DNA from: Candidatus Heimdallarchaeota archaeon
GTDB lineage: Archaea > Asgardarchaeota > Heimdallarchaeia > Heimdallarchaeales > Heimdallarchaeaceae
Assembly (NCBI GenBank): GCA_019057815.1
Contig: JAHLWR010000012.1
Location: 32,001 to 96,000 of the forward strand
Direction: 5' to 3'
Length of the DNA: 64,000 nucleotides
The notes beneath the pieces were generated by a model. That model had not been told where the DNA came from and ran no database searches. It saw only the letters and a list, made by a program, of their open reading frames with translations. A program made the position numbers and the translations under genes. This document shows positions 46,479 to 60,232 of the stretch, one piece after another (position 1 is the first letter of the stretch; each line of letters opens with the position of its first letter).

Positions 46479-46679
46479 TTTTCAGCGCAGGTTGTAAATA
46501 GAACCTGATAATCTTCTCTTTTTAATGATATTTCTAAGTCAAACATGAGGGCTTTTGATTTTATTTGAACGTTCTACATTTTTTGAATACTTTTATAAAC
46601 ATAGCCGATGATAATATTCCAACAAGCTACTGATTTATTACAGAAATTAGAGAAGTTTCAAAGAATGAAGTGTGGTACA

Positions 46680-47288
46680 ATGAGTGAAAAGAGTATTACT
46701 ATAAAGATGCTTGATTTGGTTAGCGATCCCATCAAGATAGAAATTTGGGATGAAATCCAGCGTGGAGTCAATTTAACAGCAAAAGAATTAAGTAAAAAAC
46801 TTAATCTAAAAAAGACAAATATTTACTATCATCTCAACCAATTAGAAGAGAGCAGATTAATTGTTTCTGAGAACCATATCCTTCCAGGAAAGAATCTTTT
46901 ACAAAAAACGTATAAAATCAATGAAGAAATTTACAGCCCGAAAGAATTTAAGGTTAGAAGGGAGTTATATGAAACCCAAGAGAGAATGAGAGAAGCTTTT
47001 CTCTTTCAGTATTACATAGTTGTGATGCATCTCAATAGGAAAATTTTACAAGTATCTGAAATGACCAATGAAGAAGTTAAGGAATTAATAAAACAGGATA
47101 AACATAGTTATGCTAAAGTTCATTATATTAGAGATAATGATGTAGCTCTTGTTAGAGAGACATTTGATGTGTTGGTTTCCGCAATTACTGAAAAGCATAG
47201 GGAAGATACATCTCCAACCGGAATCTGGGAAGAAATAACACATGCGATGATACTAGGATTATTACCAATGGAGGAGGGCGTGAAATGA
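46680..47288 (+). CDS. ArsR-like wHTH regulator
   Basis: DPIKIEI...TAKELSKKL...IYYHLNQLE. Confidence 0.8.
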   Translation: MSEKSITIKMLDLVSDPIKIEIWDEIQRGVNLTAKELSKKLNLKKTNIYYHLNQLEESRLIVSENHILPGKNLLQKTYKINEEIYSPKEFKVRRELYETQERMREAFLFQYYIVVMHLNRKILQVSEMTNEEVKELIKQDKHSYAKVHYIRDNDVALVRETFDVLVSAITEKHREDTSPTGIWEEITHAMILGLLPMEEGVK

Positions 47289-48048: not shown

Positions 48049-50193
48049 CTATTCAACACTACGAATTGAATGTCCTTTGTAAATTACTTTATCAAACGCA
48101 AGTCTTCTCATTTGAGGTTGAGTGTTTATTTCTTCATAGTAGTGTGCAGCTAATCCTACTGTTCTGCCAAAAACAAAAATCGCTTTTGCTAGTTTTGGAT
48201 CTATATCCATATCTGCTGTAATCGCACCTATTACTCCATCTACGTTTATTGGTAGGTTCATACCTCTTACACGAAATAGAACATCACTAACCATTTTTGA
48301 AACTGTAACACAATCTTTTGCATAACCTGCTTCCTCTGCAAGTTGCCAAAGAATATCTTTTCTAGGATCTTGTGTATGTATACGATGACCTAATCCTTCA
48401 ATTCTCTTTCCTGCCTTGATTGCACTATTCATCATTTCAAAAGTAGACTCTTCTAGTGGGATATTTTTTTCTTTTGATTTGTTAACGACTGATAAGAAAA
48501 ATTCTGCAGCTTTTTGCCCAGCTCCACCATGAACATCAGTTATTGCTTGAATTCCTGCGGAAAGAGCTATTTCATAAGGTGCTCGAGTTGATGAGAGGAC
48601 TAGTGTTGCTTGAGCAGAAGGAGGTGTTATCCCATGATCCACACAAGCTGTAATCATTGCTTCTAGTAATCTAACTTTTAATGAACCTGGTTGTGCTTCC
48701 CCAACTAGCCCTAGATAAATCAAGTCAGCAAAAGATACATCAGTATCTTTCACACTGTTTAGCACTTCTAGATTATCTTGAATAATCGCTAGATACTTCA
48801 CCATCCTTCCTAGAGTATAAGCTACAACTTTAGATTCATCAGAAACTGAGCTCGCGTAATTAGATAACCGTTTATCAATTTGTAAAAATGTACCGAGCAT
48901 TTTTGATACATCAGGACTTTTTGGAACTCCATCATAATTAGGGAATTCTTCTCTTATAGCATTTTTAGCGATTTTTTCGAGCTCAATTATTTCTTCTTCT
49001 GTGTCTGCAAATTCTCCCCGTTGTAACAGATACAATGTTTCTAACAACCCTTTTTTAGCAATAATTTCTTGCAAGGGATATCCTCTTATCATTATGTTAT
49101 TAGGCATCACATTTGTAATTAGTGTCCCCCATGTTTTTTCTGGAGGTTTAGCATTCCATTTATCACTCATTTTCTTATAATAATCGTCAATTTTGAAATA
49201 TATACGATTTAACTTGGATTTCACAGTATCAATTAAATCTCTCTGATGGTTAACGACATCAACATCAGCTTTTTCTAAAGCTTCTTTCTTTGAAGAATAC
49301 GTTCCATAACTTTGACCTGGTGCTACTACAGCTCCAGCATGACCCATAGTTTTTCCTTCTGGTGCATTTGCACCTGAAATCAATGCAACTATGGGTTTAG
49401 GGTATTTTTCGGGGTGAGAAAGCATATCTTGGGCAAGTAATTCTTCTTGCATTCCACCTATCTCTCCAGCGATTACTACTAAATCGGTGTTTTCGTAATT
49501 CATCACTAGTGAAACAAGATCTACAAAACGTGAACCAATTGCTCCGTCCCCACCAACACCAAGAACACCATTTTGCGCAATCCCTGCACTTGCTAAAGCA
49601 TCAGATAAATGATATAGAATTGCACCGCTTCGTGAAAGTATGGTTACACCTTTAGGTCCAATCTTCCCCTCTTTTTGTTCAGCTTGAAAAATATCCGGAA
49701 GCATCCCCACTTTAATTCCTTCAGGTGGAAAGATAATCCCAGGAGTGTTCCCACCAAATAATATCGTTTTATATTTTCTAGCCACGACTAAGATGTCTCT
49801 TACGTCTTTTAACGGAATGAATTCAGATATCAAAACTACAATAGGTATTCCTGTTCGAATTACTTCGATTGTTGCATCTTTTGCAGTTGAATAATGTCTC
49901 CAAATACTAGCTATTGCAATATTAGGATGCTCTATTATCGCTTCTTTTGCAGAATTATAAACAGGAACAGTTTCGTGTACTGTCCTACCTCCCTTTCCTG
50001 GAGCTACTCCACAAGTGACATCAGTTCCATATTCCATCATAAGTTGCGCATGTCTTGTTCCTTGTCTCCCTAGACCAACAATCATAGTTTCAATTGTTTT
50101 TGATTCCGAGATCTTACTGGCAAGTTCTGGTCTAACCTTCTTGATTAGATAATGAAGTAATCCTTGTTCTGAACTTAATTTTTCAATTGCCAT
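48049..50193 (-). CDS. ATP-citrate lyase alpha-like: SucD-type domain fused to citryl-CoA lyase/citrate synthase domain
   Basis: Motifs SRSG and MGHAGA (phospho-His). Lyase-domain motifs DHGITPPS, HGGA, GLGHRIH and NVDG. Confidence 0.85.
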   Translation of the reverse strand: MAIEKLSSEQGLLHYLIKKVRPELASKISESKTIETMIVGLGRQGTRHAQLMMEYGTDVTCGVAPGKGGRTVHETVPVYNSAKEAIIEHPNIAIASIWRHYSTAKDATIEVIRTGIPIVVLISEFIPLKDVRDILVVARKYKTILFGGNTPGIIFPPEGIKVGMLPDIFQAEQKEGKIGPKGVTILSRSGAILYHLSDALASAGIAQNGVLGVGGDGAIGSRFVDLVSLVMNYENTDLVVIAGEIGGMQEELLAQDMLSHPEKYPKPIVALISGANAPEGKTMGHAGAVVAPGQSYGTYSSKKEALEKADVDVVNHQRDLIDTVKSKLNRIYFKIDDYYKKMSDKWNAKPPEKTWGTLITNVMPNNIMIRGYPLQEIIAKKGLLETLYLLQRGEFADTEEEIIELEKIAKNAIREEFPNYDGVPKSPDVSKMLGTFLQIDKRLSNYASSVSDESKVVAYTLGRMVKYLAIIQDNLEVLNSVKDTDVSFADLIYLGLVGEAQPGSLKVRLLEAMITACVDHGITPPSAQATLVLSSTRAPYEIALSAGIQAITDVHGGAGQKAAEFFLSVVNKSKEKNIPLEESTFEMMNSAIKAGKRIEGLGHRIHTQDPRKDILWQLAEEAGYAKDCVTVSKMVSDVLFRVRGMNLPINVDGVIGAITADMDIDPKLAKAIFVFGRTVGLAAHYYEEINTQPQMRRLAFDKVIYKGHSIRSVE

Positions 50194-51507
50194 TTAATTA
50201 CCTCCACCTTGTTTTAGCTCTTTTTTAACTTTGAAACCATACTCTATTCCATCTTTAATGACATCAGCCATAATTTTCTGATTTCCAATAATAATATGCA
50301 AATCTTTCAAAGGTTCAGGAGTCTCTCTTTTAGCTCTTTCAAAAAATGCTCGAGCTGCAGCAAGGTCTGTCCCAACCATACGTCCAAATACAGGTATCAT
50401 TCTTTTGTTTTTCATAAATCTGTCCCTTAATGACATAATTAATCCTTGAATAAAGATATCACAGCTAGATATACCACCAAATCGGCTAGTTATGATTAAA
50501 TCAGCAGCAGGGTGATCCATCAATATGTGAAACATATCTGCAACTTTACTAAGTGATGGTCCTCCACCGCTATCCATGAAATTTATAGGAATAACATTAC
50601 TATCGAAATAACGATTACCAATATTTACAACTTCATCAATTGAAAAAATCCCATAACCAGCACCACCTGGGACTAAACCTACATACAACTTGTCCTTTTC
50701 TTTAACGAAATTTACAGGTTCACTAAGCAAATCAAGGTAGGGAAAACCTATCTTATAGGCTAACGCTTCAAACTGTGTCTGTTCAGCCACATCGTGTCGT
50801 TTACTATTAGGGTCAATACTTATGGATTTTAACATTGGAGCTTGCCTATACAAACTGTTATCATCAAGTACTAGTTTTGCATCTGCTGCGATTATTTTGT
50901 TATCTTTAGTTAAAATTAATGGATTTATTTCACAAACTTTTGCTTCAACTTGTTGGAACAATGAAAAAAGTGAGCATATGGTTGTTTTTAATTGATTATC
51001 AAGTGCTATTAAATCTGGATTCTTTTTGATTAAAAAGTCAACTGCTTCTTGTGCTATCGAATCAGGTAGAACTTTGGAATTATCAAGAATTGAAGTTTTC
51101 CATATTTCTTCTGGTTTTGTTCGTGCAATTTCCTCGATATCAATACCACCGCTTGCAGAGGTAACTATAACTACATCAAAAGTTGCAGGATCTGTAGTAA
51201 CTGATAAATAAATCTCACTAGCGATATCTATTGCTTCTTCAAGTAGTAATTTATCGATTGGGTAGCCATGAATCGTCAAATCCAACATTTCACTAACAAT
51301 CTGCTTAGCTTCATCTGAATTATCAGCTTTTTTTATCCCCCCAGCTTTACCTCTTCCACCTATCAGTACCATTGCTTTAATCATTATTGGGAAGTTTAAG
51401 GTTAAAACCTCTAATTCCTCTGTAGTTTCGATTACTGCAATTTGTTTTGGTATGGTAAGTCCAAATTTTTCGAAAATTTGTTTTGCTTCATGTTCATATA
51501 ATTTCAT
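50194..51507 (-). CDS. ATP-grasp CoA-ligase beta subunit (SucC/AclB-like)
   Basis: Motifs MKLYEHEAK, GGRGKAGG, EINPL, DAKLVLDDN and NFMDSGGG. Confidence 0.88.
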   Translation of the reverse strand: MKLYEHEAKQIFEKFGLTIPKQIAVIETTEELEVLTLNFPIMIKAMVLIGGRGKAGGIKKADNSDEAKQIVSEMLDLTIHGYPIDKLLLEEAIDIASEIYLSVTTDPATFDVVIVTSASGGIDIEEIARTKPEEIWKTSILDNSKVLPDSIAQEAVDFLIKKNPDLIALDNQLKTTICSLFSLFQQVEAKVCEINPLILTKDNKIIAADAKLVLDDNSLYRQAPMLKSISIDPNSKRHDVAEQTQFEALAYKIGFPYLDLLSEPVNFVKEKDKLYVGLVPGGAGYGIFSIDEVVNIGNRYFDSNVIPINFMDSGGGPSLSKVADMFHILMDHPAADLIITSRFGGISSCDIFIQGLIMSLRDRFMKNKRMIPVFGRMVGTDLAAARAFFERAKRETPEPLKDLHIIIGNQKIMADVIKDGIEYGFKVKKELKQGGGN

Positions 51508-51519
51508 TCTCTTTCCCTT

Positions 51520-53370
51520 CTAACTTGAGTATAGTTTTTGGTAATATTTGATAAGTCCTCCAGCGTTGAAAATTTTCAATAATTCTTCAGGGAGTTTTGG
51601 AAAATCATAGGTTCTGTCCCCATTGATTAGTTTCCCATTTTCCAAATCAACCGATGTTGGAACATTTGAATCAAAATTTTCCACAAATTCTGGATGAACA
51701 ATAATTGGTAATCCTTGATTTATTGCAGAACGGTAAAATATTCTAGCAACCGATTTGACAATTACTGCTTTTACGCCTGCAAAAGCTAATCCTACTGCTG
51801 GATGTTCCCTAGATGACCCGCTACCAAAATTAGCTCCAGCAATAATGATATCATCTTCTTTAACTTGAGAAGCAAAAGCTTCATCTAATCCTTTGAATAA
51901 GTGAGGAACAATTTTATCCCCGTCAGCTGATTTGATATCGTAAGTCAAATTACCTGCGAACATTTGGTCTGTGTTAAAATCATTAACATCACAATAATTC
52001 CAAACATTATTTTTGTATCTGCCATCATCTGATGCTATAACTATCGTTTTCTCCACTTCATCTTTGGGTTGGATTTTTATCTTTGTTTCCTTTTTCTCCA
52101 AAGCTAGAGGTAGAAAATCTCGAGGGTCAACAATTTTACCAGCAATTGCAGAAGCAGCTATAGTAGCAGGAGATGCTAAATAAACTGATGATGCTTTATT
52201 TCCCATTCTCCCTAGAAAATTTCTATTTGCAGTAGAGATTACGTTAAAACCATCTGCTGGTATCCCTTGTCCTTTTCCTAAACATGGACCACAACTACAT
52301 GAAAGAATCGTAGCACCTGCTTCGACAAAAGTATGTATTGCTCCTTTATTCAAGGCTTCTAGATATATTTCTTGAGATGCTGGAGCAACAATAAATTGCA
52401 CTCCTTGTCTAACTTTCTTTCCTTCCAAAATTATAGCAGCTATTAGAAAATCATCTAACCTAGCATTTGTGCATGTTCCTAAGAAAGCTTGATCAACAGG
52501 TATTTCACCAATCTTTGATATTAATTGTATATTATCAACTTGATGTGGAATCGCAACAAGAGGTTCTAAATCATCTAAAACAATTATAATCTCACGGCTG
52601 TAAATAGCATCTTCATCAGCCCAATATAATCCCTCTGCTGGGAATTCCTTTGTTGGATGTTTTTCTTTCAACCAATTGAGTAGGATTTCATCTGGAGGAA
52701 AAATTGCTGTTTTGGCACCCATCTCCGATGCAAGGTTTGTTAAAGTCATTCGTTCAGAAACGCTTAGTTTTTTCACTCCATCTCCGTGAAACTCTATTGC
52801 TTGATAGTTTGCACCTGATGCACTTATAAGATTCATAAGCCATAAAGCGATATCTTTAGCATATACTCCTAAAGATAGCTTCCCTTTCAAAACGACCTTA
52901 ATAGTTTCTGGGACTCTGAACCATGTTTTCCCAGTTAACCATAACCCAGCTGTTTCCGTTCTATCGATTCCCGCAGCAAAAGCTGAGAAAGCTCCACTTG
53001 TGCAAGTATGCGAATCAGAACCTACAATTAACATACTAGGTAATGCATGATTTGACATTAGTTGATGACATATCCCACGTCCTTCATCATAGAAGTTGTC
53101 GATTTTTTGATCAGACACTAATTTTCTAATACTTTGGTGATCATTGGCAATCTTTGCACTCGTCGGAGGTGAATCATGGTCTAGAACAATAACCAAACGA
53201 TTGGGATACTTAATATTTTTTCCACCCATTTTCTGAAATGTCTTTACAATTGATGCTGAATTATCATGAGACATAATCAAATCTGGTTCAGCATAAATTA
53301 TATCTCCTGCTTTAACTGGTTGTCCCGACTTGTTTGAAAATAATTTCTCTGAAAATGTTTTTCCACTCAT
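51520..53370 (-). CDS. Fused LeuC-LeuD type aconitase/homoaconitase
   Basis: Motifs GSDSHT, GTCTNAR and CGPCLG, followed by NTDQM and NFGSGSSREH. Confidence 0.88.
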   Translation of the reverse strand: MSGKTFSEKLFSNKSGQPVKAGDIIYAEPDLIMSHDNSASIVKTFQKMGGKNIKYPNRLVIVLDHDSPPTSAKIANDHQSIRKLVSDQKIDNFYDEGRGICHQLMSNHALPSMLIVGSDSHTCTSGAFSAFAAGIDRTETAGLWLTGKTWFRVPETIKVVLKGKLSLGVYAKDIALWLMNLISASGANYQAIEFHGDGVKKLSVSERMTLTNLASEMGAKTAIFPPDEILLNWLKEKHPTKEFPAEGLYWADEDAIYSREIIIVLDDLEPLVAIPHQVDNIQLISKIGEIPVDQAFLGTCTNARLDDFLIAAIILEGKKVRQGVQFIVAPASQEIYLEALNKGAIHTFVEAGATILSCSCGPCLGKGQGIPADGFNVISTANRNFLGRMGNKASSVYLASPATIAASAIAGKIVDPRDFLPLALEKKETKIKIQPKDEVEKTIVIASDDGRYKNNVWNYCDVNDFNTDQMFAGNLTYDIKSADGDKIVPHLFKGLDEAFASQVKEDDIIIAGANFGSGSSREHPAVGLAFAGVKAVIVKSVARIFYRSAINQGLPIIVHPEFVENFDSNVPTSVDLENGKLINGDRTYDFPKLPEELLKIFNAGGLIKYYQKLYSS

Positions 53371-53383
53371 TACTCCTTCCTCG

Positions 53384-53896
53384 CTAAAATTCTGTTTTTT
53401 CCCCCAGTTCGAGTAAGCCACCTGCTTTCATGATGTCAATTACTGGTTTAGGGATAGATTTACATTTCATTGCTGTTCCTTTGTTTTCATTGGAGATCAT
53501 AGCATTACTAAGATCGATTTCCAAAGTATCATTGTCATCTATTTTGAACTCTAGAATTCCTGGAGCTTCAATTAACAGTAAACCTGCATTTACAGCGTTA
53601 CTATAGTAGATGGGACCAAACGATTCTCCAATAATCGCTTTGATTTTGTGAGCTAAAAATCCTGTTACAGCTTGTTGTCTGGTTGACCCTTTACCAAAAT
53701 TCTTACCGACAATCACTATTTTGTTTTCATTGTTCTCTTTCCCAAACGATTGATGTCCAGGAAGATTCCCAAAAATATGTGGTTTAATTTCTTCTGGATC
53801 ATGAATTGTTAACAATGATTGATGAAATATCTGATCTGTATCAATGTCATCAACTCTTATTATTTTTACTTGACCATTAATTTTCTCTTCACTCAA
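53384..53896 (-). CDS. LeuD/HacB family small subunit
   Basis: Motifs DDIDTDQI and NFGKGSTRQQA. Confidence 0.88.
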   Translation of the reverse strand: MSEEKINGQVKIIRVDDIDTDQIFHQSLLTIHDPEEIKPHIFGNLPGHQSFGKENNENKIVIVGKNFGKGSTRQQAVTGFLAHKIKAIIGESFGPIYYSNAVNAGLLLIEAPGILEFKIDDNDTLEIDLSNAMISNENKGTAMKCKSIPKPVIDIMKAGGLLELGEKTEF

Positions 53897-55186
53897 TTAT
53901 TCATCACCCATTTGCTCATATTCTTTTATTGGAATAGCTATCTTACCTTCGATAGCAGATGCTGCAGCAACTACAGGACTGGCTAAATAGACATCTCCTG
54001 GACCGATTTTTCCCTGAGTGTTTCTATTCCCTGTTGTTATAGAAACGGTTGTCTTACCTCCTGTTAGACCATATTGTCCCTTTGCACATGTCGAACAACC
54101 AGCACCAAAGAAGTTGCCACCAGCTTCTAGAATCGTGGTCATAGTACCATCAGCATTTAGAGAAACAAAGTCTTCTCGAGTAGCTGGAATAAGTCCTAAA
54201 CGTACATTAGGATTAACTTTTTGATTCTTTAAGATTCTAGCAGCTTGCTGAAAGTCTAGAGTAGTACCATTTGTACAGGAACCAATAACAATAGAGTGTA
54301 TTTCAGTTCCTACGACCTCTTCAATTGGTTTAACATTGTGTGGATGTGGAGGACAAGCCAAGTATAAACCTAAATCCTGGATATCAATCATTATTTCAGA
54401 AGAATAATTAGCATCTTCATCAGCTGAAATCGAATCAATTTCAATATTGAATTGTTTATAGTAGTCGGCTGTTATATGATCAGGAGCAACAAAACCTATG
54501 GATCCAGATGCTTCGGTTATTAGTGAACACAGAGTTACTCTTTCTTCTATGCTTAATCTAGATATTATCTCACCATGAAATTCAACTGAACAACCTGTAA
54601 TTCCATATTCATGCAACTGCTTCAGTACATAAAGAGCAAGATCTTTTACAGTAGTTGGCCATTTATAATCTCCTTTCAACTCAACTTTAACTGTTTCAGG
54701 AATTTTTATCCAATATTTTCCTGTTTTAACAGCAAAAGCTAGCATTAAATCTCCTGCTCCTTGTCCCAAAATCCCTAATGCTCCTAATAGATTATAATGA
54801 CTATCAGCACCAATAACTATATCGCCAGGAAGAGAAAGCCCTCTTTTAAATAGTAAATGTGACCCAATTCCTGATCCCAAATCTGTAAGTTGAATGTCGT
54901 GTTTTTTGGCGAAAACGCGCAGTTTTTCTTGGTCTATCGCATGTTTAGGATCATTGCCATAAGGGTAACAATCAGGTGTAAAAATAATTTTCTTATTATC
55001 AAAAGTTTCTGATCCCGGATAATGTTTTTCGAATAAATCGATTACTTGAGGACCAGCATAATCTCTAGCTGTTACAAGATCTAGATTAACCCAAACGATA
55101 TTACCAGGATAGATTTCTTCATCTGAACTCTCAGTATGTTTTCTAATGATTTTCTCGACTAAAGTAAATCCTACCATTTCTTCCAT
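53897..55186 (-). CDS. LeuC/HacA family large subunit (divergent)
   Basis: Motifs GADSH, GSCTNG, CSTC and YLASP. Confidence 0.88.
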   Translation of the reverse strand: MEEMVGFTLVEKIIRKHTESSDEEIYPGNIVWVNLDLVTARDYAGPQVIDLFEKHYPGSETFDNKKIIFTPDCYPYGNDPKHAIDQEKLRVFAKKHDIQLTDLGSGIGSHLLFKRGLSLPGDIVIGADSHYNLLGALGILGQGAGDLMLAFAVKTGKYWIKIPETVKVELKGDYKWPTTVKDLALYVLKQLHEYGITGCSVEFHGEIISRLSIEERVTLCSLITEASGSIGFVAPDHITADYYKQFNIEIDSISADEDANYSSEIMIDIQDLGLYLACPPHPHNVKPIEEVVGTEIHSIVIGSCTNGTTLDFQQAARILKNQKVNPNVRLGLIPATREDFVSLNADGTMTTILEAGGNFFGAGCSTCAKGQYGLTGGKTTVSITTGNRNTQGKIGPGDVYLASPVVAAASAIEGKIAIPIKEYEQMGDE

Positions 55187-55245
55187 TTCCCCTTTTTTTA
55201 AATAAGTTATATCCTTTTTGAAATGACATCGTACTGCTACAAAAA

Positions 55246-56382
55246 CTAATTTAGTTCTGCTATTTTTTTACAAATAGCTTCTGCCATTCCCGAAGTTGTT
55301 GTAACTCCACCCATGTCATATGTACGAGCTTTTCCTTCTGCAATAACTGCAGCAACAGCATTTTCTATCTTTTGAGCTAATTCATTTTCACCCAACCAAT
55401 CCAACATCATTTTAGCTGCAAGAATAGTAGCAATTGGGTTTACTTTGTTCATCCCTACATATTTAGGTGCTGAACCATGAGTTGGTTCAAAGACTGCGAA
55501 TTTTTCACCTATATTACCAGAACACGCAAATCCTAGCCCTCCTATCAGTTGAGCAGCTAAATCAGAAATAATATCACCAAACATATTAGAAGAAACTAGA
55601 ACACCATAATTCTGAGGATTCTTAACTAACCACATAGCCATAGCATCGATGTTGGTTTCCCATAACTCAACGTCTTCATAATTTTCAATCAATTTTCGAG
55701 CTTCTCTTATCATCATTCCGCTTGTTTCTCTGATAACATTCGGTTTTTCCACTACAGTAACAGTTGGATAAGCGAATTTTTTAGCATAGTCCATACTAGC
55801 TTTTAAGATGCGTTGAACTCCATCTCTAGTAAAGATTCTTGTTGAAATAGCTACATCATCTAAGTTCGCTTCAGCAAATCTTTTAGCTTTAGGGTGGTTC
55901 TCAACAATAGTTTTCATAACTTCATCAGGTACTGGGTGCCATTCAATTCCTACATACAAACCTTCAGTATTCTCACGGAAAACTACTAAATCGATATCAT
56001 CACGGAAATTTAATGGGTTCCCAGAATAAGCTTTGCATGGGCGTAAATTGACATACAAGTCAAACAGCTGTCGTAGTTTAACAATTGGGCTAAAATAAAC
56101 TAATCCTTTATCTTGTAATTCAGGTATCAATTCCTTAGCAGCTTCATCTTTAGGTTTTGAAGTAATAGCACCAAATAAGGAACAAGTTGATCCTTTTAAT
56201 AAATCGATAGTTCTGTCAGGTAAGGGGTTGCCTTCTTTGACCCAGAACTCCCAGCCAATATCACCATAAGTGTATTCAGCTTTTTCACTAAAACCTACAG
56301 CATCAAGAACATTGATAGCTGCTTCTATAGTATCTTTACCAATACCATCGCCTGGTAAAATCGCAATCTTATATTTACTCAT
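55246..56382 (-). CDS. Isocitrate/homoisocitrate/isopropylmalate dehydrogenase family protein
   Basis: Motifs PGDGIG, RENTEGLY, NMFGDIISD and EPTHGSAP. Confidence 0.92.
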   Translation of the reverse strand: MSKYKIAILPGDGIGKDTIEAAINVLDAVGFSEKAEYTYGDIGWEFWVKEGNPLPDRTIDLLKGSTCSLFGAITSKPKDEAAKELIPELQDKGLVYFSPIVKLRQLFDLYVNLRPCKAYSGNPLNFRDDIDLVVFRENTEGLYVGIEWHPVPDEVMKTIVENHPKAKRFAEANLDDVAISTRIFTRDGVQRILKASMDYAKKFAYPTVTVVEKPNVIRETSGMMIREARKLIENYEDVELWETNIDAMAMWLVKNPQNYGVLVSSNMFGDIISDLAAQLIGGLGFACSGNIGEKFAVFEPTHGSAPKYVGMNKVNPIATILAAKMMLDWLGENELAQKIENAVAAVIAEGKARTYDMGGVTTTSGMAEAICKKIAELN

Positions 56383-56405
56383 TATAACATTCACCCTTTT
56401 TTTAG

Positions 56406-56969
56406 TTATTTAGTTTCAAATAATTTCTTGATTGGAGCAAAACAAAGAAAATCACATCGGCTAACTATTTCAACTTCTGGTAATCTGTCAATTTTGTCTC
56501 CTTCCTTACTGTGAAAAACTATTGCTTGACGCACAACTAAAGGTAAATCAAACTCATAGACTATTTCCAATCCTTGTGCAGGATGTCTTATCCGTTTTCC
56601 AGCAATGGTTTGTTTGATGTTTCCAGTTGAGTCTTTTTCGTATTCAACAAACTTTCCAACGTCATGCAGTAATGCTGCAGCTATTAATTCATCTCTATTC
56701 AGTTTATCTCCCAATCCTAACATCTCATATCTTTCATATGTGGCTATACACATTTGAGTAACTGCCCTGATATGATCAATAATGTTTATTTTTGGTGCTT
56801 TACCTTCTCCAATTAATTCAGGTATCAATAATGTAAATGGAATTGTTCTTATCTCCTCTTCTTTCCATCCACCTAAATTAATCGCTTTCTCAAGAGATTT
56901 AGCAACTTTTTTTTGCAAATCAATATTTTTAATCTCTTCTAGTTCAGGAAACAGGTTTTTTATATCCAT
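56406..56969 (-). CDS. HD domain protein
   Basis: Motifs IDH, LLHDVGK, RHP and FHS. Confidence 0.85.
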   Translation of the reverse strand: MDIKNLFPELEEIKNIDLQKKVAKSLEKAINLGGWKEEEIRTIPFTLLIPELIGEGKAPKINIIDHIRAVTQMCIATYERYEMLGLGDKLNRDELIAAALLHDVGKFVEYEKDSTGNIKQTIAGKRIRHPAQGLEIVYEFDLPLVVRQAIVFHSKEGDKIDRLPEVEIVSRCDFLCFAPIKKLFETK

Positions 56970-57129
56970 TATTACCAACCTCTAATATCACTTTGTCTGT
57001 ACAAATTAAGAAACGATAATTATCTCAATTTATACAAGTTTTTTTAATGTAAAAGTATTTTTAATGAGTTATAATTAAGCATTTTGCTACGACTTCTTTT
57101 TTTAAAGATAATATAATTTTGAGTATTGA

Positions 57130-57823: not shown

Positions 57824-59908
57824 TTACCCCATAACAAGTACTAACAGATGATAAACAATAGTCGTTATTATTGTGGTTAATATTAGTGGATAGAAAAAGC
57901 CTAAAGCTGTAAGTTTCCAACTTCTTGATTCTGATTTCATTGTAGCTATTGTTGCAAAACAAGGAGCATAAGTCATTTGAAATATCAAGAAAGATATAAC
58001 TTGAGGAATGGTCCAAGCAGCTAAAAGAGCTGAAACAATGGTACCTCCTGAAGAATAAAGAATACCTAGAGCAGATATTATAACTTCTTTTGCACCTATC
58101 CCGAAAGCTAAAGGAACAATCATTTTCCAATCTAAACCCATCATGGGATAAGTAACATATGCTAAACCCCTTCCTACATACCCAATAATAGTTTTTTCTG
58201 GGACGACATTAAATGGTATATTGCTAACTATCCAGATAAGGATTGATGCGATAAAAATCATCGTTCCAGCTTTTATCAGAAAAATTCTGGTTCTTTCCCA
58301 AGTAAGATAACCAATATTTCTGAATCTTGGTCTACGATACTCAGGTAGTTCAAGAATCAAGGGTAGCTTTTCTTCATTTTTCCTGAAAAAGGATGCAAGA
58401 AAAGCTGTTATCAAGACAAAAAATATGCTTAAACCGTAGAGAAGCAATAAGATAATAGCAGCTAACCAAGGTTTAAAGAAAATACCTGTTATAAAAGCAA
58501 GCACTCCTAATCTTGCTGCACAAGGAATAAATGAATTCGCTAGTATCATAATTTTGCGATCACTTTCATTCTTGATTGTTCGCGTAGCCATAATTCCCGC
58601 CACGTTACACCCAAAACCCATTATCAGACTTAAGAATGCAGTTCCTTGTAGACCAAATTTTCCCATTACTTTATCCATTAAATATGCAGACCTTGCTAAA
58701 TATCCTGAATCTTCTAAAATGGCAACTAAAGTATAAAAAATCGCGATTATAGGGAGAAAGAGTAGAACTGCACCTATTCCTGCTATAACACCATCAACTA
58801 TTAAACTATTCAGAATTGCTGGAGAATTAACATTGAGTAATAATGACGATATCCAATTTGCAAATTTACTAACCAACCAGTCCATCCCTTCAAGTATCGG
58901 ACTTGACAAATAGAAAGTTATTAAGAAGAAAATAGCGTAAATTATTATAAGGATTGGAAAACCCCAAAATCTATGTAGGACTATTTTGTCTACTTTGTCG
59001 CTTTTCTTTTCCTGAAATTCGCTTAGACCATAAACTGATTTAGAAAGAATTTGTTGAATAGCACGATATTTTCTTTTAGATATCTCAGATGAAGGAATGT
59101 AATCCTCTGTCTCTTTAAAGTGTTCAATCTTTTTTCTAACATTAGAAAGATCATATTCTTTTTCTAGTTCTGTTAGTATACTTTCGTCTCCTTCAAGTAC
59201 CTTAAACGCTAACCACTCGGTGGGGTAGTTTATCAGAACATTTCGATCATCAATTTGTTTTCGTATACTTTGAAGCATTAATTCAATTTTTCTCGGATAA
59301 ACTACTTTCGCAGGAGTAAAATGGTATTTTTCTGTGTGCAATGTGTCATATAAGAATTTTTTAAGTGATATGTATGACATATCATCAAAAGCACTAACTA
59401 ATACAACAGGAATACCTAACTGCTCTTGCAATTTGATTCTATCTATAGTGATTCCTTCTTTATCTGCAATATCCATCATATTTACAACTAAAGCTACATT
59501 TGAGGTCAATTCCATTGTTTGTAAGGCTATAAATAATGTTCTTTCTAATCTAGAAGCATCAACAATGACACAAACTAAATCAGGTTTTTCTTCAATAACA
59601 AACTGCCTTGTAATCAGTTCTTCTTCAGAACGAGCTGTTAGAGAATAAGTTCCTGGTAAATCAGTTAATGAAAAATACTCATCTGAAAGAATAAAATGTC
59701 CCTCTTTTTTCTCAATAGTCTTACCTGGCCAGTTTCCGATGTGTTGATGACTCCCTGTTAATCCATTGAAAAGAGAGGATTTTCCCACATTAGGATTACC
59801 TAAAAAAGCAATACGATGCTCTATCCCATGATCAATCTTAGTAGGATCGAATCTAGTTCTATGGTGAAACTTACGTCCTCTTCCTGAAAATCTTCTCTTT
59901 CCGTGCAT
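57824..59908 (-). CDS. feoB: Ferrous iron transporter B
   Basis: Motifs GNPNVGKS, NWPGKT, DLPGTYSL, GFGCNV and PCAARL. Confidence 0.95.
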   Translation of the reverse strand: MHGKRRFSGRGRKFHHRTRFDPTKIDHGIEHRIAFLGNPNVGKSSLFNGLTGSHQHIGNWPGKTIEKKEGHFILSDEYFSLTDLPGTYSLTARSEEELITRQFVIEEKPDLVCVIVDASRLERTLFIALQTMELTSNVALVVNMMDIADKEGITIDRIKLQEQLGIPVVLVSAFDDMSYISLKKFLYDTLHTEKYHFTPAKVVYPRKIELMLQSIRKQIDDRNVLINYPTEWLAFKVLEGDESILTELEKEYDLSNVRKKIEHFKETEDYIPSSEISKRKYRAIQQILSKSVYGLSEFQEKKSDKVDKIVLHRFWGFPILIIIYAIFFLITFYLSSPILEGMDWLVSKFANWISSLLLNVNSPAILNSLIVDGVIAGIGAVLLFLPIIAIFYTLVAILEDSGYLARSAYLMDKVMGKFGLQGTAFLSLIMGFGCNVAGIMATRTIKNESDRKIMILANSFIPCAARLGVLAFITGIFFKPWLAAIILLLLYGLSIFFVLITAFLASFFRKNEEKLPLILELPEYRRPRFRNIGYLTWERTRIFLIKAGTMIFIASILIWIVSNIPFNVVPEKTIIGYVGRGLAYVTYPMMGLDWKMIVPLAFGIGAKEVIISALGILYSSGGTIVSALLAAWTIPQVISFLIFQMTYAPCFATIATMKSESRSWKLTALGFFYPLILTTIITTIVYHLLVLVMG

Positions 59909-59940: not shown

Positions 59941-60174
59941 TTAGTTTTCAGATATAACCTCAATTTTTGCAGCTAATCCTCTACCAATTGCAACTCTGGT
60001 TCCTTTGATCTCTACTATCACAGGACCCTCATCATTTTTTAGGATCTTGATTTTTTCATCTTCAATAATTCCGAGATCAGATAAGTAATTACGTGCCCTA
60101 AAACCTGCAATAATTCGCTTTATTTTTAAAATGACATCTTTATTGGCATCACAGAGCGTTCGTGTCAGTTGCAT
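59941..60174 (-). CDS. feoA: Ferrous iron transport protein A
   Basis: LSDLGI...GPVIVEIKGTRVAIGRGLAAKI. Confidence 0.9.
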   Translation of the reverse strand: MQLTRTLCDANKDVILKIKRIIAGFRARNYLSDLGIIEDEKIKILKNDEGPVIVEIKGTRVAIGRGLAAKIEVISEN

Positions 60175-60210
60175 CCACTTCAACATCATGGGAACCATGG
60201 TTATTATAAA

Positions 60211-60232
60211 ATTTTTGGATGTGTCCAAAAAT
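60211..60232. promoter_or_regulatory. Palindromic operator upstream of feoAB (DtxR/MntR-like)
   Basis: ATTTTTGGA tgtg TCCAAAAAT next to the TATA box, plus an extra half-site at 60234. Confidence 0.6.

Follow-up and report, generated by a model that had tools for sequence, protein, structure and literature searches.

Several of the systems closest to the locus described here form and cleave citryl-CoA. In Hydrogenobacter thermophilus, the citryl-CoA synthetase (CCS) CcsAB (PDB 6hxq) forms citryl-CoA, and a separate citryl-CoA lyase (CCL), Ccl (PDB 6hxp), carries out the Claisen cleavage. ATP-citrate lyase (ACL), represented by the AclAB enzymes of Chlorobium (6hxj) and Methanothrix (6hxi) and by human ACLY (6hxh), has a two-chain architecture with a phosphohistidine and an operon context of aconitase and isocitrate dehydrogenase (IDH). 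Other non-canonical two-chain candidates for citrate cleavage include a fused ccsB–ccl of Planctomycetes, which has been called an intermediate between CCS–CCL and a 'type II ACL' (PMC5459899), and the type II ACL of Magnetococcus and tubeworm symbionts (PMC6783814, PMC3522073), compared here by its description only. In archaea, a fusion of sucD with citrate synthase in Methanosarcinales has been listed as Acl (PMC11237513), and ACL homologues that are not sister to eukaryotic ACLY are present in Asgard archaea and Bathyarchaeota (bioRxiv 10.1101/2022.10.25.513756; PMC11976288). Here we analyse a 64,000-nucleotide stretch of DNA (the window) from a Candidatus Heimdallarchaeota archaeon (assembly GCA_019057815.1, 3.74 Mb, 95% complete; contig C36), whose closest protein relatives are found in Candidatus Heimdallarchaeota metagenome-assembled genomes (MAGs). 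The window carries a seven-gene module that joins a ligase/lyase pair of AclAB-like architecture to two Fe–S hydratases, a β-decarboxylating dehydrogenase and an HD protein, and that, judged from its sequence, is best described as a putative new variant of ATP-dependent citrate cleavage or synthesis with non-canonical aconitase and IDH steps, parallel to AclAB. Our literature search found no description or assay of the family of ligases resembling succinyl-CoA synthetase (SCS) to which the pair belongs, or of the seven-gene module.

The module consists of seven open reading frames (ORFs) in the same direction that fill positions 56978–48049 of the minus strand. In module order, they encode an HD-domain (HDIG) protein of 187–190 aa (56406–56978, likely starting at the ATG at 56969; Pfam HD and TIGR00277), an Iso_dh-family β-decarboxylating dehydrogenase of 382 aa (55246–56394; PF00180), the divergent 429-aa large subunit of a split LeuC-type Fe–S hydratase (53897–55186; PF00330, Aconitase) and its 170-aa LeuD-type small subunit (53384–53896; PF00694, Aconitase_C, and TIGR02087), a fused LeuC–LeuD Fe–S hydratase (51520–53421; Aconitase and Aconitase_C), an SCS-β-like ATP-grasp chain of 437 aa (50194–51507; ATP-grasp_2 and Ligase_CoA) and a 714-aa α-chain in which a SucD-like part is fused to a lyase (48049–50193; CoA_binding, Ligase_CoA and Citrate_synt). 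The first three intergenic distances are 11, 59 and 0 nt; the next two genes overlap by 38 nt, and the last two distances are 12 and 0 nt. The ORF list thus agrees with the first-pass annotation, which had described seven co-oriented genes with gaps of 0–59 nt, apart from the one apparent overlap. The fused hydratase is 633 aa long when read from a GTG, and the overlap turns into a 13-nt gap if its start is placed at the probable Met18 (53370), where orthologue alignments start. Domains were called with Pfam and NCBIfam profile searches scored against curated cut-offs, and none of the six module enzymes reached an NCBIfam equivalog cut-off.

We consider it probable that the module interconverts 2-oxoglutarate and CO2, isocitrate, citrate, and acetyl-CoA and oxaloacetate, with the cleavage direction favoured. 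In this scheme, the β-chain and the N-terminal half of the α-chain would form an SCS-type ligase in which ATP phosphorylates His285 and citrate is converted via citryl-phosphate to citryl-CoA. The C-terminal citrate-synthase-fold domain would split citryl-CoA into acetyl-CoA and oxaloacetate; in the reverse direction, acetyl-CoA and oxaloacetate would be condensed and the thioester energy kept as ATP. The two LeuCD-type Fe–S hydratases would substitute for aconitase, and the dehydrogenase, which resembles LeuB and homoisocitrate dehydrogenase (HICDH), would substitute for IDH. Used reductively, the route would lead from 2-oxoglutarate, for example from glutamate, to acetyl-CoA or acetate and oxaloacetate. 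A self-contained path from a 2-oxoacid and CO2 through an iso-acid and a citrate-like acid to acetyl-CoA and an oxoacid had been put forward in the first-pass annotation, and the gene content makes it plausible.

The AclAB-like architecture noted there is confirmed by Pfam, which identifies a fusion of SucD with a citrate-synthase-fold domain and a separate ATP-grasp chain. The α-chain comprises a CoA-binding and phosphohistidine domain (approximately residues 30–335) followed by a citrate-synthase-fold lyase domain of 370 aa (approximately residues 345–714), and the phosphohistidine His285 is invariant within a GHAGA motif that is also common to SucCD. Both ligase parts are most similar to SCS. 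Against PDB sequences, the β-chain scored 169 bits with SCS-β, 81 with the Hydrogenobacter CCS large subunit and 44 with Chlorobium AclB, and the α part scored 189 bits with SCS-α, 106 with AclA and 103 with the CCS small subunit, which places the ligase nearer to SCS than to CcsAB. The β-chain matched PF08442 with 150 bits, and its score for the ACL ATP-grasp model PF24948 (44.8 bits) was under the cut-off of 83. Neither chain reached the SCS equivalog models, with 234.6 bits for the β-chain (cut-off 370) and 208 bits for the α-chain (cut-off 336).

The substrate loops of the β-chain, PGGAGYG, NFMDSGGG and SRFGGISSCD, which had been singled out as unusual, are all present and in the alignment differ from those of both SCS and ACL, while being clearly derived from SCS loops. 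The SucCD counterparts of the second and third read NFLDVGGG and IFGGIVRCD, and the window pair is further distinguished from SucCD by the Arg that precedes FGG, by two family-specific inserts beside substrate loops 1 and 2 of the β-chain, and by the fusion of its α part to a lyase (SCS-α is a stand-alone protein of ~290 aa). The ACL loops GGGAS, NYGEYSG and GGIANFT are absent from the window pair, as are the GGGGS, NFTDIGGNP and GGTANNT loops of the Ccs/ACL group.

The lyase domain has the Hydrogenobacter citryl-CoA lyase 6hxp as its best PDB relative (118 bits, compared with ~47 for the citrate synthase homology (CSH) domain of ACL) and shares with Ccl the active-site motifs DHG..PPSA, HGGA, GHR and NVD. 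Its best NCBIfam citryl-CoA lyase model was NF004866 (196.9 bits, under the cut-off of 245), and it lay far under all NCBIfam citrate-synthase cut-offs. Unlike the three-polypeptide Ccs/Ccl system, the window has its small subunit and lyase in one chain, and the lyase is ~90–100 residues longer than Ccl, having a full citrate-synthase fold: it spans positions 10–354 of the Citrate_synt profile, whereas AclA and the short CCLs cover only ~147–354. Seven of the eight active-site residues of E. coli GltA (H229, H264, H305, R314, D362, F383, R387 and R407, as listed in PMC13147460) are retained, including the catalytic His/His/Asp set and the oxaloacetate/citrate-binding Arg; the first seven correspond to H520, H555, H603, R611, D652, F673 and R677, with H555, H603 and D652 as the catalytic set. 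The His equivalent to GltA H264 is kept in the window lyase, whereas AclA has Phe at this position. GltA R407 aligns with F700, and R696 and R697 lie 3–4 residues upstream, like the KR in Ccl, so that at the eighth position the family pattern resembles that of the assayed Hydrogenobacter CCL.

That the substrate loops and the overall similarity are nearest to SCS is also what would be expected if the β/α pair were a second SCS or another dicarboxylate ligase, with the lyase domain and its neighbours belonging to an unrelated pathway such as methylcitrate or alkylcitrate metabolism. We regard this as very improbable. The source genome has a second, canonical SCS pair on contig C39 (32–36% identity by tblastn), and the window chains score far under the SCS equivalog cut-offs. 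A ligase–lyase fusion would imply a shared acyl-CoA, and succinyl-CoA should not be cleavable by a Claisen-type lyase. In addition, the Arg of the (S/A)RFGGIS loop is common to the module family and its sister clade, both of which are always linked to CCL-type lyases. The methylcitrate cycle is incompatible with a secondary-alcohol dehydrogenase step, as 2-methylisocitrate is a tertiary alcohol and unsuited to the dehydrogenase reaction.

To place the pair relative to SCS, CCL and ACL, quick maximum-likelihood trees were built for the α domain, the β-chain and the lyase domain. The three trees are congruent, and the module family is monophyletic in them with support of 99–100; its sister is a group of modules with unfused β, α and short CCL genes from WOR-3, TA06 and Stahlbacteria. 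In the α and β trees, the module family and this sister group both adjoin SCS, so that the family falls on the SCS/CCL side, and AclA/AclB form a distant, separate clade that in the β tree is joined by an Asgard Ccs-like trio and by Planctomycetota-type fusions. The loops divide in the same way: the family and its sister clade have PGGAG(Y/F)G, NFMDSGG and (S/A)RFGGIS, which are variants of SCS loops, and the ACL, Ccs-like and Planctomycetota chains have GGGxS, (Y/F)xEYSGNP and GGxANFT in common. The Planctomycetota/Armatimonadota fusions, with ~30% identity to the window pair and ACL-type loops, group with CCS/ACL. Forcing the β-chains of the family together with AclB cost 40 log-likelihood units and was rejected in an approximately unbiased (AU) test (p = 0.000217), for a group that was chosen for constraint after the tree had been seen. 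The separate clades, the AU rejection and the SCS-type loops together indicate that the α–lyase fusion is independent of the AclA fusion and no stage towards it, and the suggestion that the pair might be an SCS-to-ACL evolutionary intermediate finds no support in the three trees, in which the family and ACL branch in parallel. Stand-alone 'long' lyases are interleaved with fused ones in the lyase tree, so fusion or fission must have occurred repeatedly. The ligase/lyase pair is an AclAB-like architecture that, from these sequence comparisons, appears to have a separate origin from an SCS lineage and a CCL-type lyase.

Canonical AclB (PF24948 over the cut-off) was found in 43 of 201 sampled Asgard genomes, none of them of the window's family, with scores of 124–258 bits overall and 199–258 bits for complete genes. 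The canonical Asgard ACL operons (loci L066–L073, for example L067 = G127:C9:258000-270000) have the order PRK07229-type aconitase (~650 aa), AclB, AclA and IDH (~400 aa), an enzyme set whose logic parallels that of the module, and three Asgard genomes (G133, G136 and G172) hold such an operon together with an SCS-like fusion pair. A genome of the same order as the source, G145, encodes an unfused β-chain of 416 aa, an α-chain of 308 aa and a short CCL of 265 aa (L077 = G145:C66:1-4564); this is the Ccs-like trio of the β tree, and its β-chain has the Hydrogenobacter citryl-CoA synthetase large subunit as best PDB match. Canonical AclAB, the SCS-like fusion and the G145 trio thus give the Asgard archaea at least three citrate-cleaving designs. 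The citrate-synthase-like proteins of 330–380 aa in the Asgard family f10 were considered and set aside as unrelated (~25% identity and no linkage to ligase genes).

The two hydratases differ in how closely they approach described enzymes. The fused hydratase exceeded the cut-offs of NF001614 (499 bits) and IPMI_arch (488 bits), and fell under that of the aconitase model PRK07229 (395 bits, cut-off 612). The split large subunit, which is 32% identical to its fused paralogue, remained under the NF001614 cut-off (361 bits, cut-off 385), and the split pair was under even the subfamily-model cut-offs; neither hydratase reaches an equivalog assignment to LeuCD, HacAB or aconitase. The cluster cysteines C347, C407 and C410 of E. 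coli LeuC are kept in both. The fused hydratase has all of the motifs DSH, CTN, CGPC and GSSRE, and the split small subunit has GSTRQ in place of the canonical GSSRE, with the catalytic Ser and Arg retained. At the specificity positions that we take to be YLRT or YLVM in the Methanocaldococcus jannaschii enzymes, both small domains are idiosyncratic and are without the homoaconitase Arg, and no conclusion on the substrate was drawn. We propose that the fused hydratase has an aconitase function and hypothesise that dehydration and rehydration are divided between the two hydratases. Some lineages have one hydratase type only ('fused-type' in Bathyarchaeia and Bipolaricaulota, 'split-type' in Aminicenantes and Eubacteriales), indicating that the pair is not obligatory, and several Thermoplasmata instead have AcnX genes nearby.

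The dehydrogenase matched PF00180 with 300 bits, and in the PDB it comes closest to a small NAD-IDH (6lky) and, about equally, to the HICDH of Thermus. Signatures of IDH (Ser113 and Asn115), isopropylmalate dehydrogenase (Leu–Leu) and HICDH (Arg85) were compared. Numbered as in E. coli Icd, the residues R119, R129, R153, Y160, K230, D283, D307, D311 and S113 are all kept, so that the catalytic Tyr and Lys, the three Asp that bind metal and the three Arg that contact the malate moiety are present and the enzyme is IDH-like at Ser113; Asn115 is replaced by Ile, a Val occupies the position aligned by eye to Arg85 of Thermus HICDH, and all equivalog cut-offs were missed. We propose that it is an IDH or reductive 2-oxoglutarate carboxylase.

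Several of these features weigh against citrate as the substrate. The γ-carboxylate ligand of Icd, Asn115, is Ile in all module orthologues; the acid-binding loops of the β-chain are SCS-like rather than the citrate loops of ACL and CCS; among named profiles, the dehydrogenase and the hydratases score best with those of homoisocitrate dehydrogenase and homoaconitase/isopropylmalate isomerase, none at an equivalog cut-off; the fungal homocitrate route requires two hydratases (PMC3556520); the genomes G133, G136, G178 and G196 pair the ligase/lyase with canonical AclAB or citrate synthase, which would be redundant if both used citrate; and the HD protein is left unexplained by a citrate route. 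Most of these observations would fit an enzyme set acting on homocitrate, in which 2-oxoadipate and CO2 would be converted via homoisocitrate and homocitrate to acetyl-CoA and 2-oxoglutarate, as a reversal of the first half of the α-aminoadipate pathway, or would run forward for lysine synthesis. AksF2 homoisocitrate dehydrogenase and HacA/HacB-type homoaconitase are in fact the top named profiles, the dehydrogenase, with its Ile at the Asn115 position, has Thermus HICDH among its top matches in the PDB, fungi use two aconitase-family enzymes to isomerise homocitrate (PMC3556520), and some genomes hold the module alongside canonical citrate enzymes. However, every one of the profile scores is under its equivalog cut-off, the oxaloacetate-site residues of the lyase are exactly those of the assayed citryl-CoA lyase and of citrate synthase, the same lyase clade is paired with an equivalog-level citF (citrate CoA-transferase), and the module is the sole route to or from citrate in several genomes. 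In the source genome, in which LysX and DapA were not found, the module would not serve lysine synthesis. Moreover, we know of no citrate-synthase-fold enzyme with 2-oxoglutarate as substrate. Because the active-site residues are kept and equivalog-level citF genes accompany lyases of this clade, citrate appears the likely substrate and homocitrate an improbable one, these being rough weights; on the same grounds, homocitrate and methylcitrate, which the first-pass annotation had named as possible substrates, are disfavoured.

The gene content of the source genome bears on both the substrate and the direction. In tblastn searches of the whole assembly with the seven proteins, no further gene of the Iso_dh, aconitase or citrate-synthase families was found, and a family search identified a single Citrate_synt domain, making the module the sole possible link of citrate-type acids to the remaining metabolism in this genome. 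The HMGL-like family PF00682, which covers LeuA and the homocitrate, citramalate and Re-citrate synthases, had no match in the assembly, whereas it was detected in 14 of 14 control genomes, upholding the earlier observation that LeuA and homocitrate synthase are absent. LysX over its cut-off and DapA were not found in the assembly, and a LysA-like match was under its cut-off; a tblastn search for citF gave no match in the genome. Elongation of leucine or other 2-oxoacids was accordingly ruled out for want of a PF00682 gene, and lysine synthesis by an α-aminoadipate pathway with a non-orthologous homocitrate synthase for want of LysX and DapA, so the module cannot serve leucine or lysine synthesis in the source genome. 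The failure to find the LeuA family, DapA and LysX in a genome that is 95% complete suggests that the organism is auxotrophic for leucine and lysine. The assembly also holds six 2-oxoacid:ferredoxin oxidoreductase α-type genes, two FrdA/SdhA-like genes and one class I fumarase.

The same enzymes could operate in the opposite direction, as the oxidative branch of the tricarboxylic acid (TCA) cycle, with the ligase/lyase acting as an ATP-conserving citrate synthase, as the ATP-citrate lyase of Desulfobacter postgatei does. This is a minority view to which we give appreciable weight, since the family lacks any citrate synthase while the rest of the TCA cycle is apparently present, classical citrate synthase, AcnA and IDH fill the same metabolic position in sister families, and the lyase domain retains a complete citrate-synthase fold and catalytic set. 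The arguments on direction are not decisive, and the ACL reaction is near equilibrium, at about −8 kJ/mol (table in PMC13147460). We lean towards the cleavage, or reductive, direction, in chemistry that would be nearly reversible, because associations with citF and with an ADP-forming acyl-CoA synthetase (ACD) suggest cleavage with acetate formation.

The conservation of the module was assessed in relatives of the source genome and beyond Asgard archaea. Within the family (f1), the loci of 8 relatives were inspected, and each contains the seven genes in identical order. Exactly one citrate-synthase domain, one Iso_dh and the two hydratases were counted in 18 of 21 other family genomes in a phylum-level sample and in 20 of 24 in an order-level sample, and wherever coordinates were listed the Iso_dh and hydratase matches lay on the contig of the fusion gene. 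Four family genomes, two of them single-contig, had none of these families. Sister families instead encode a classical citrate synthase, an AcnA of ~900 aa and IDH. A scan of species-representative genomes yielded 545 relatives, and gene order was surveyed in the best 80 of these: the order dehydrogenase, HD, hydratase(s), β and α/lyase was seen again in Borr- and Hermodarchaeota, Thermoplasmata and Bathyarchaeia, and in many lineages of bacterial MAGs, among them Eisenbacteria, Aminicenantes, Fraserbacteria, Bipolaricaulota, Deltaproteobacteria, WOR-3, TA06 and Stahlbacteria. The identical order in relatives and the recurrence across phyla show that the clustering is not due to chance, and the operon conservation that had been proposed as a check is borne out. 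On the complete bacterial chromosome CP070727, the module contains the only genes of the citrate-synthase, Iso_dh and aconitase families. The Bathyarchaeia genome G210 has classical citrate synthase genes, one of them ~4 kb from the module, and its module hydratase is the only aconitase-family gene. A Thermoplasmata MAG has its α/lyase in two ORFs (506 and 259 aa; L127:6001-8135), likely owing to a frameshift or assembly error, and also encodes a canonical AclA with an adjacent IDH.

The lyase is found outside the ligase fusion in two further contexts. In five loci of Thermoplasmata/Methanomassiliicoccales (L134:3663-6219, L136:2983-5575, L140:615-3207, L135 and L139), stand-alone lyases of the module's 'long' clade (support 99) lie 1–20 nt downstream of citF, and one of them shares 68% identity with a fused domain from Thermoplasmatales. 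In Bipolaricaulota, citF is located within the full module. Three citF genes that were scanned, two from those loci and one from Bipolaricaulota, reached 516–575 bits with TIGR01584, whose equivalog cut-off is 501, and no CitE or CitD (acyl carrier protein, ACP) was seen in the Thermoplasmata citF loci. CitF converts citrate to a citryl thioester, so the same lyase could be served by either CoA transfer or an ATP-dependent ligase. The adjacency of CitF to module-family lyases in some lineages implies the citryl-thioester intermediate of the citrate lyase CitDEF, from which the window system differs in having a citrate-synthase-fold lyase instead of CitE and in using ATP in place of CoA transfer. 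The translational coupling of citF with a stand-alone citrate-synthase-fold lyase in these Thermoplasmata/Methanomassiliicoccales loci looks like an undescribed, ATP-independent design of citrate lyase. Thermoplasmata loci with a fused ligase/lyase contain complete genes for the large and small subunits of AcnX; L134 has the small subunit only, beside the HD gene.

In MAGs of Myxococcota and 'Enterobacterales', a stand-alone lyase is followed by an ACD, a divergent 495-aa β-chain and an α-chain. A bacterial form of the module at the loci L141:431-11863 and L137:358-11954 contains genes for the dehydrogenase, the HD protein, two hydratases, the stand-alone lyase, an ACD of ~715 aa, a very divergent ATP-grasp protein of 495 aa and a SucD-like protein of 321 aa. 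An ACD, presumed to be an acetyl-CoA synthetase, adjoins the module in several bacteria, including that represented by CP070727.

The association of the HD protein with the lyase is conserved: the HD gene adjoins lyase genes in most lineages, including those with citF-linked lyases. It matched Pfam HD with 44 bits, and across 24 orthologues H69, D106, H132, H156 and D176 never vary and H105 hardly does. A search of PDB sequences gave no relative, and a protein atlas returned only unnamed HD clusters. The AlphaFold2 (AF2) model has a predicted local distance difference test score (pLDDT) of 94, and a fold search with it retrieved only generic HD nucleotidase/nuclease folds, the best PDB match being YhaM with a template modelling (TM) score of 0.65.

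Upstream of the HD gene lies a 151-nt intergenic region on the minus strand (56979–57129) with 26% GC, in which a TATA-like element, TTGTATAAAT, is found at 57037–57028; a GAGGT precedes the ATG of the HD gene. This AT-rich stretch, read from the sequence, is a candidate promoter of archaeal type. The module is immediately preceded by a gene for an FeoB ferrous-iron transporter (FeoB_N, Gate and FeoB_C; 57824–59908, minus strand) with a 95-aa ORF behind it (59941–60228, minus strand). FeoB may be a mere neighbour, though the module that it adjoins encodes two Fe–S hydratases. On the other side, an ArsR/MarR-type winged-helix regulator is encoded on the opposite strand (46608–47288, plus strand), ~760 nt from the module's 3′ end and separated from it by a 240-aa ORF. 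The flanking genes of the window (FeoB, an ABC transporter and the ArsR-type regulator) provided no clue to the pathway, and Rfam and tRNA scans of the window gave no hits.

No known organisms are more closely related to the eukaryotic host than Asgard archaea, and reconstructions of their metabolism hinge on whether citrate synthase, ACL, aconitase and IDH are recognised. The module proteins carry database names such as 'succinyl-CoA synthetase alpha', 'citrate/2-methylcitrate synthase' and 'hypothetical'; in Heimdallarchaeaceae-like genomes, all four steps apparently lie under such names, and no curated equivalog model detects the module enzymes. Orthologue-based pipelines that depend on these names or models would thus be likely to miss the pathway or assign it wrongly. 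The module is set apart from the canonical Asgard AclAB that has been considered as a potential origin of eukaryotic ACLY (PMC11976288; bioRxiv 10.1101/2022.10.25.513756). If the reading of the module as a citrate route is true, ATP-dependent citrate cleavage arose at least twice by fusion of an SCS-type α-chain with a citrate-synthase-fold lyase. The full citrate-synthase fold kept in the module lyase bears on the proposal of Verschueren et al. 2019 (cited in PMC11237513) that citrate synthase had a CCL-like ancestor.

A bolder reading, which we offer tentatively and consider rather doubtful as a whole, is that the module constitutes a third, independently evolved ATP-citrate-lyase system and a horizontally mobile 'alternative half-TCA', in which LeuCD-type hydratases, a LeuB-like dehydrogenase and an obligatory HD partner would replace the textbook enzymes in many uncultured anaerobes, including Heimdall- and other Asgard archaea, Thermoplasmata, Bathyarchaeia, Aminicenantes, WOR-3 and others. 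These organisms might then ferment glutamate or 2-oxoglutarate by reductive carboxylation to citrate and its conversion to acetate and oxaloacetate, and the HD protein might perform a step that has no counterpart in known citrate metabolism. The spread of the module over many anaerobic sediment lineages suggests a widely used, uncharacterised carbon route.

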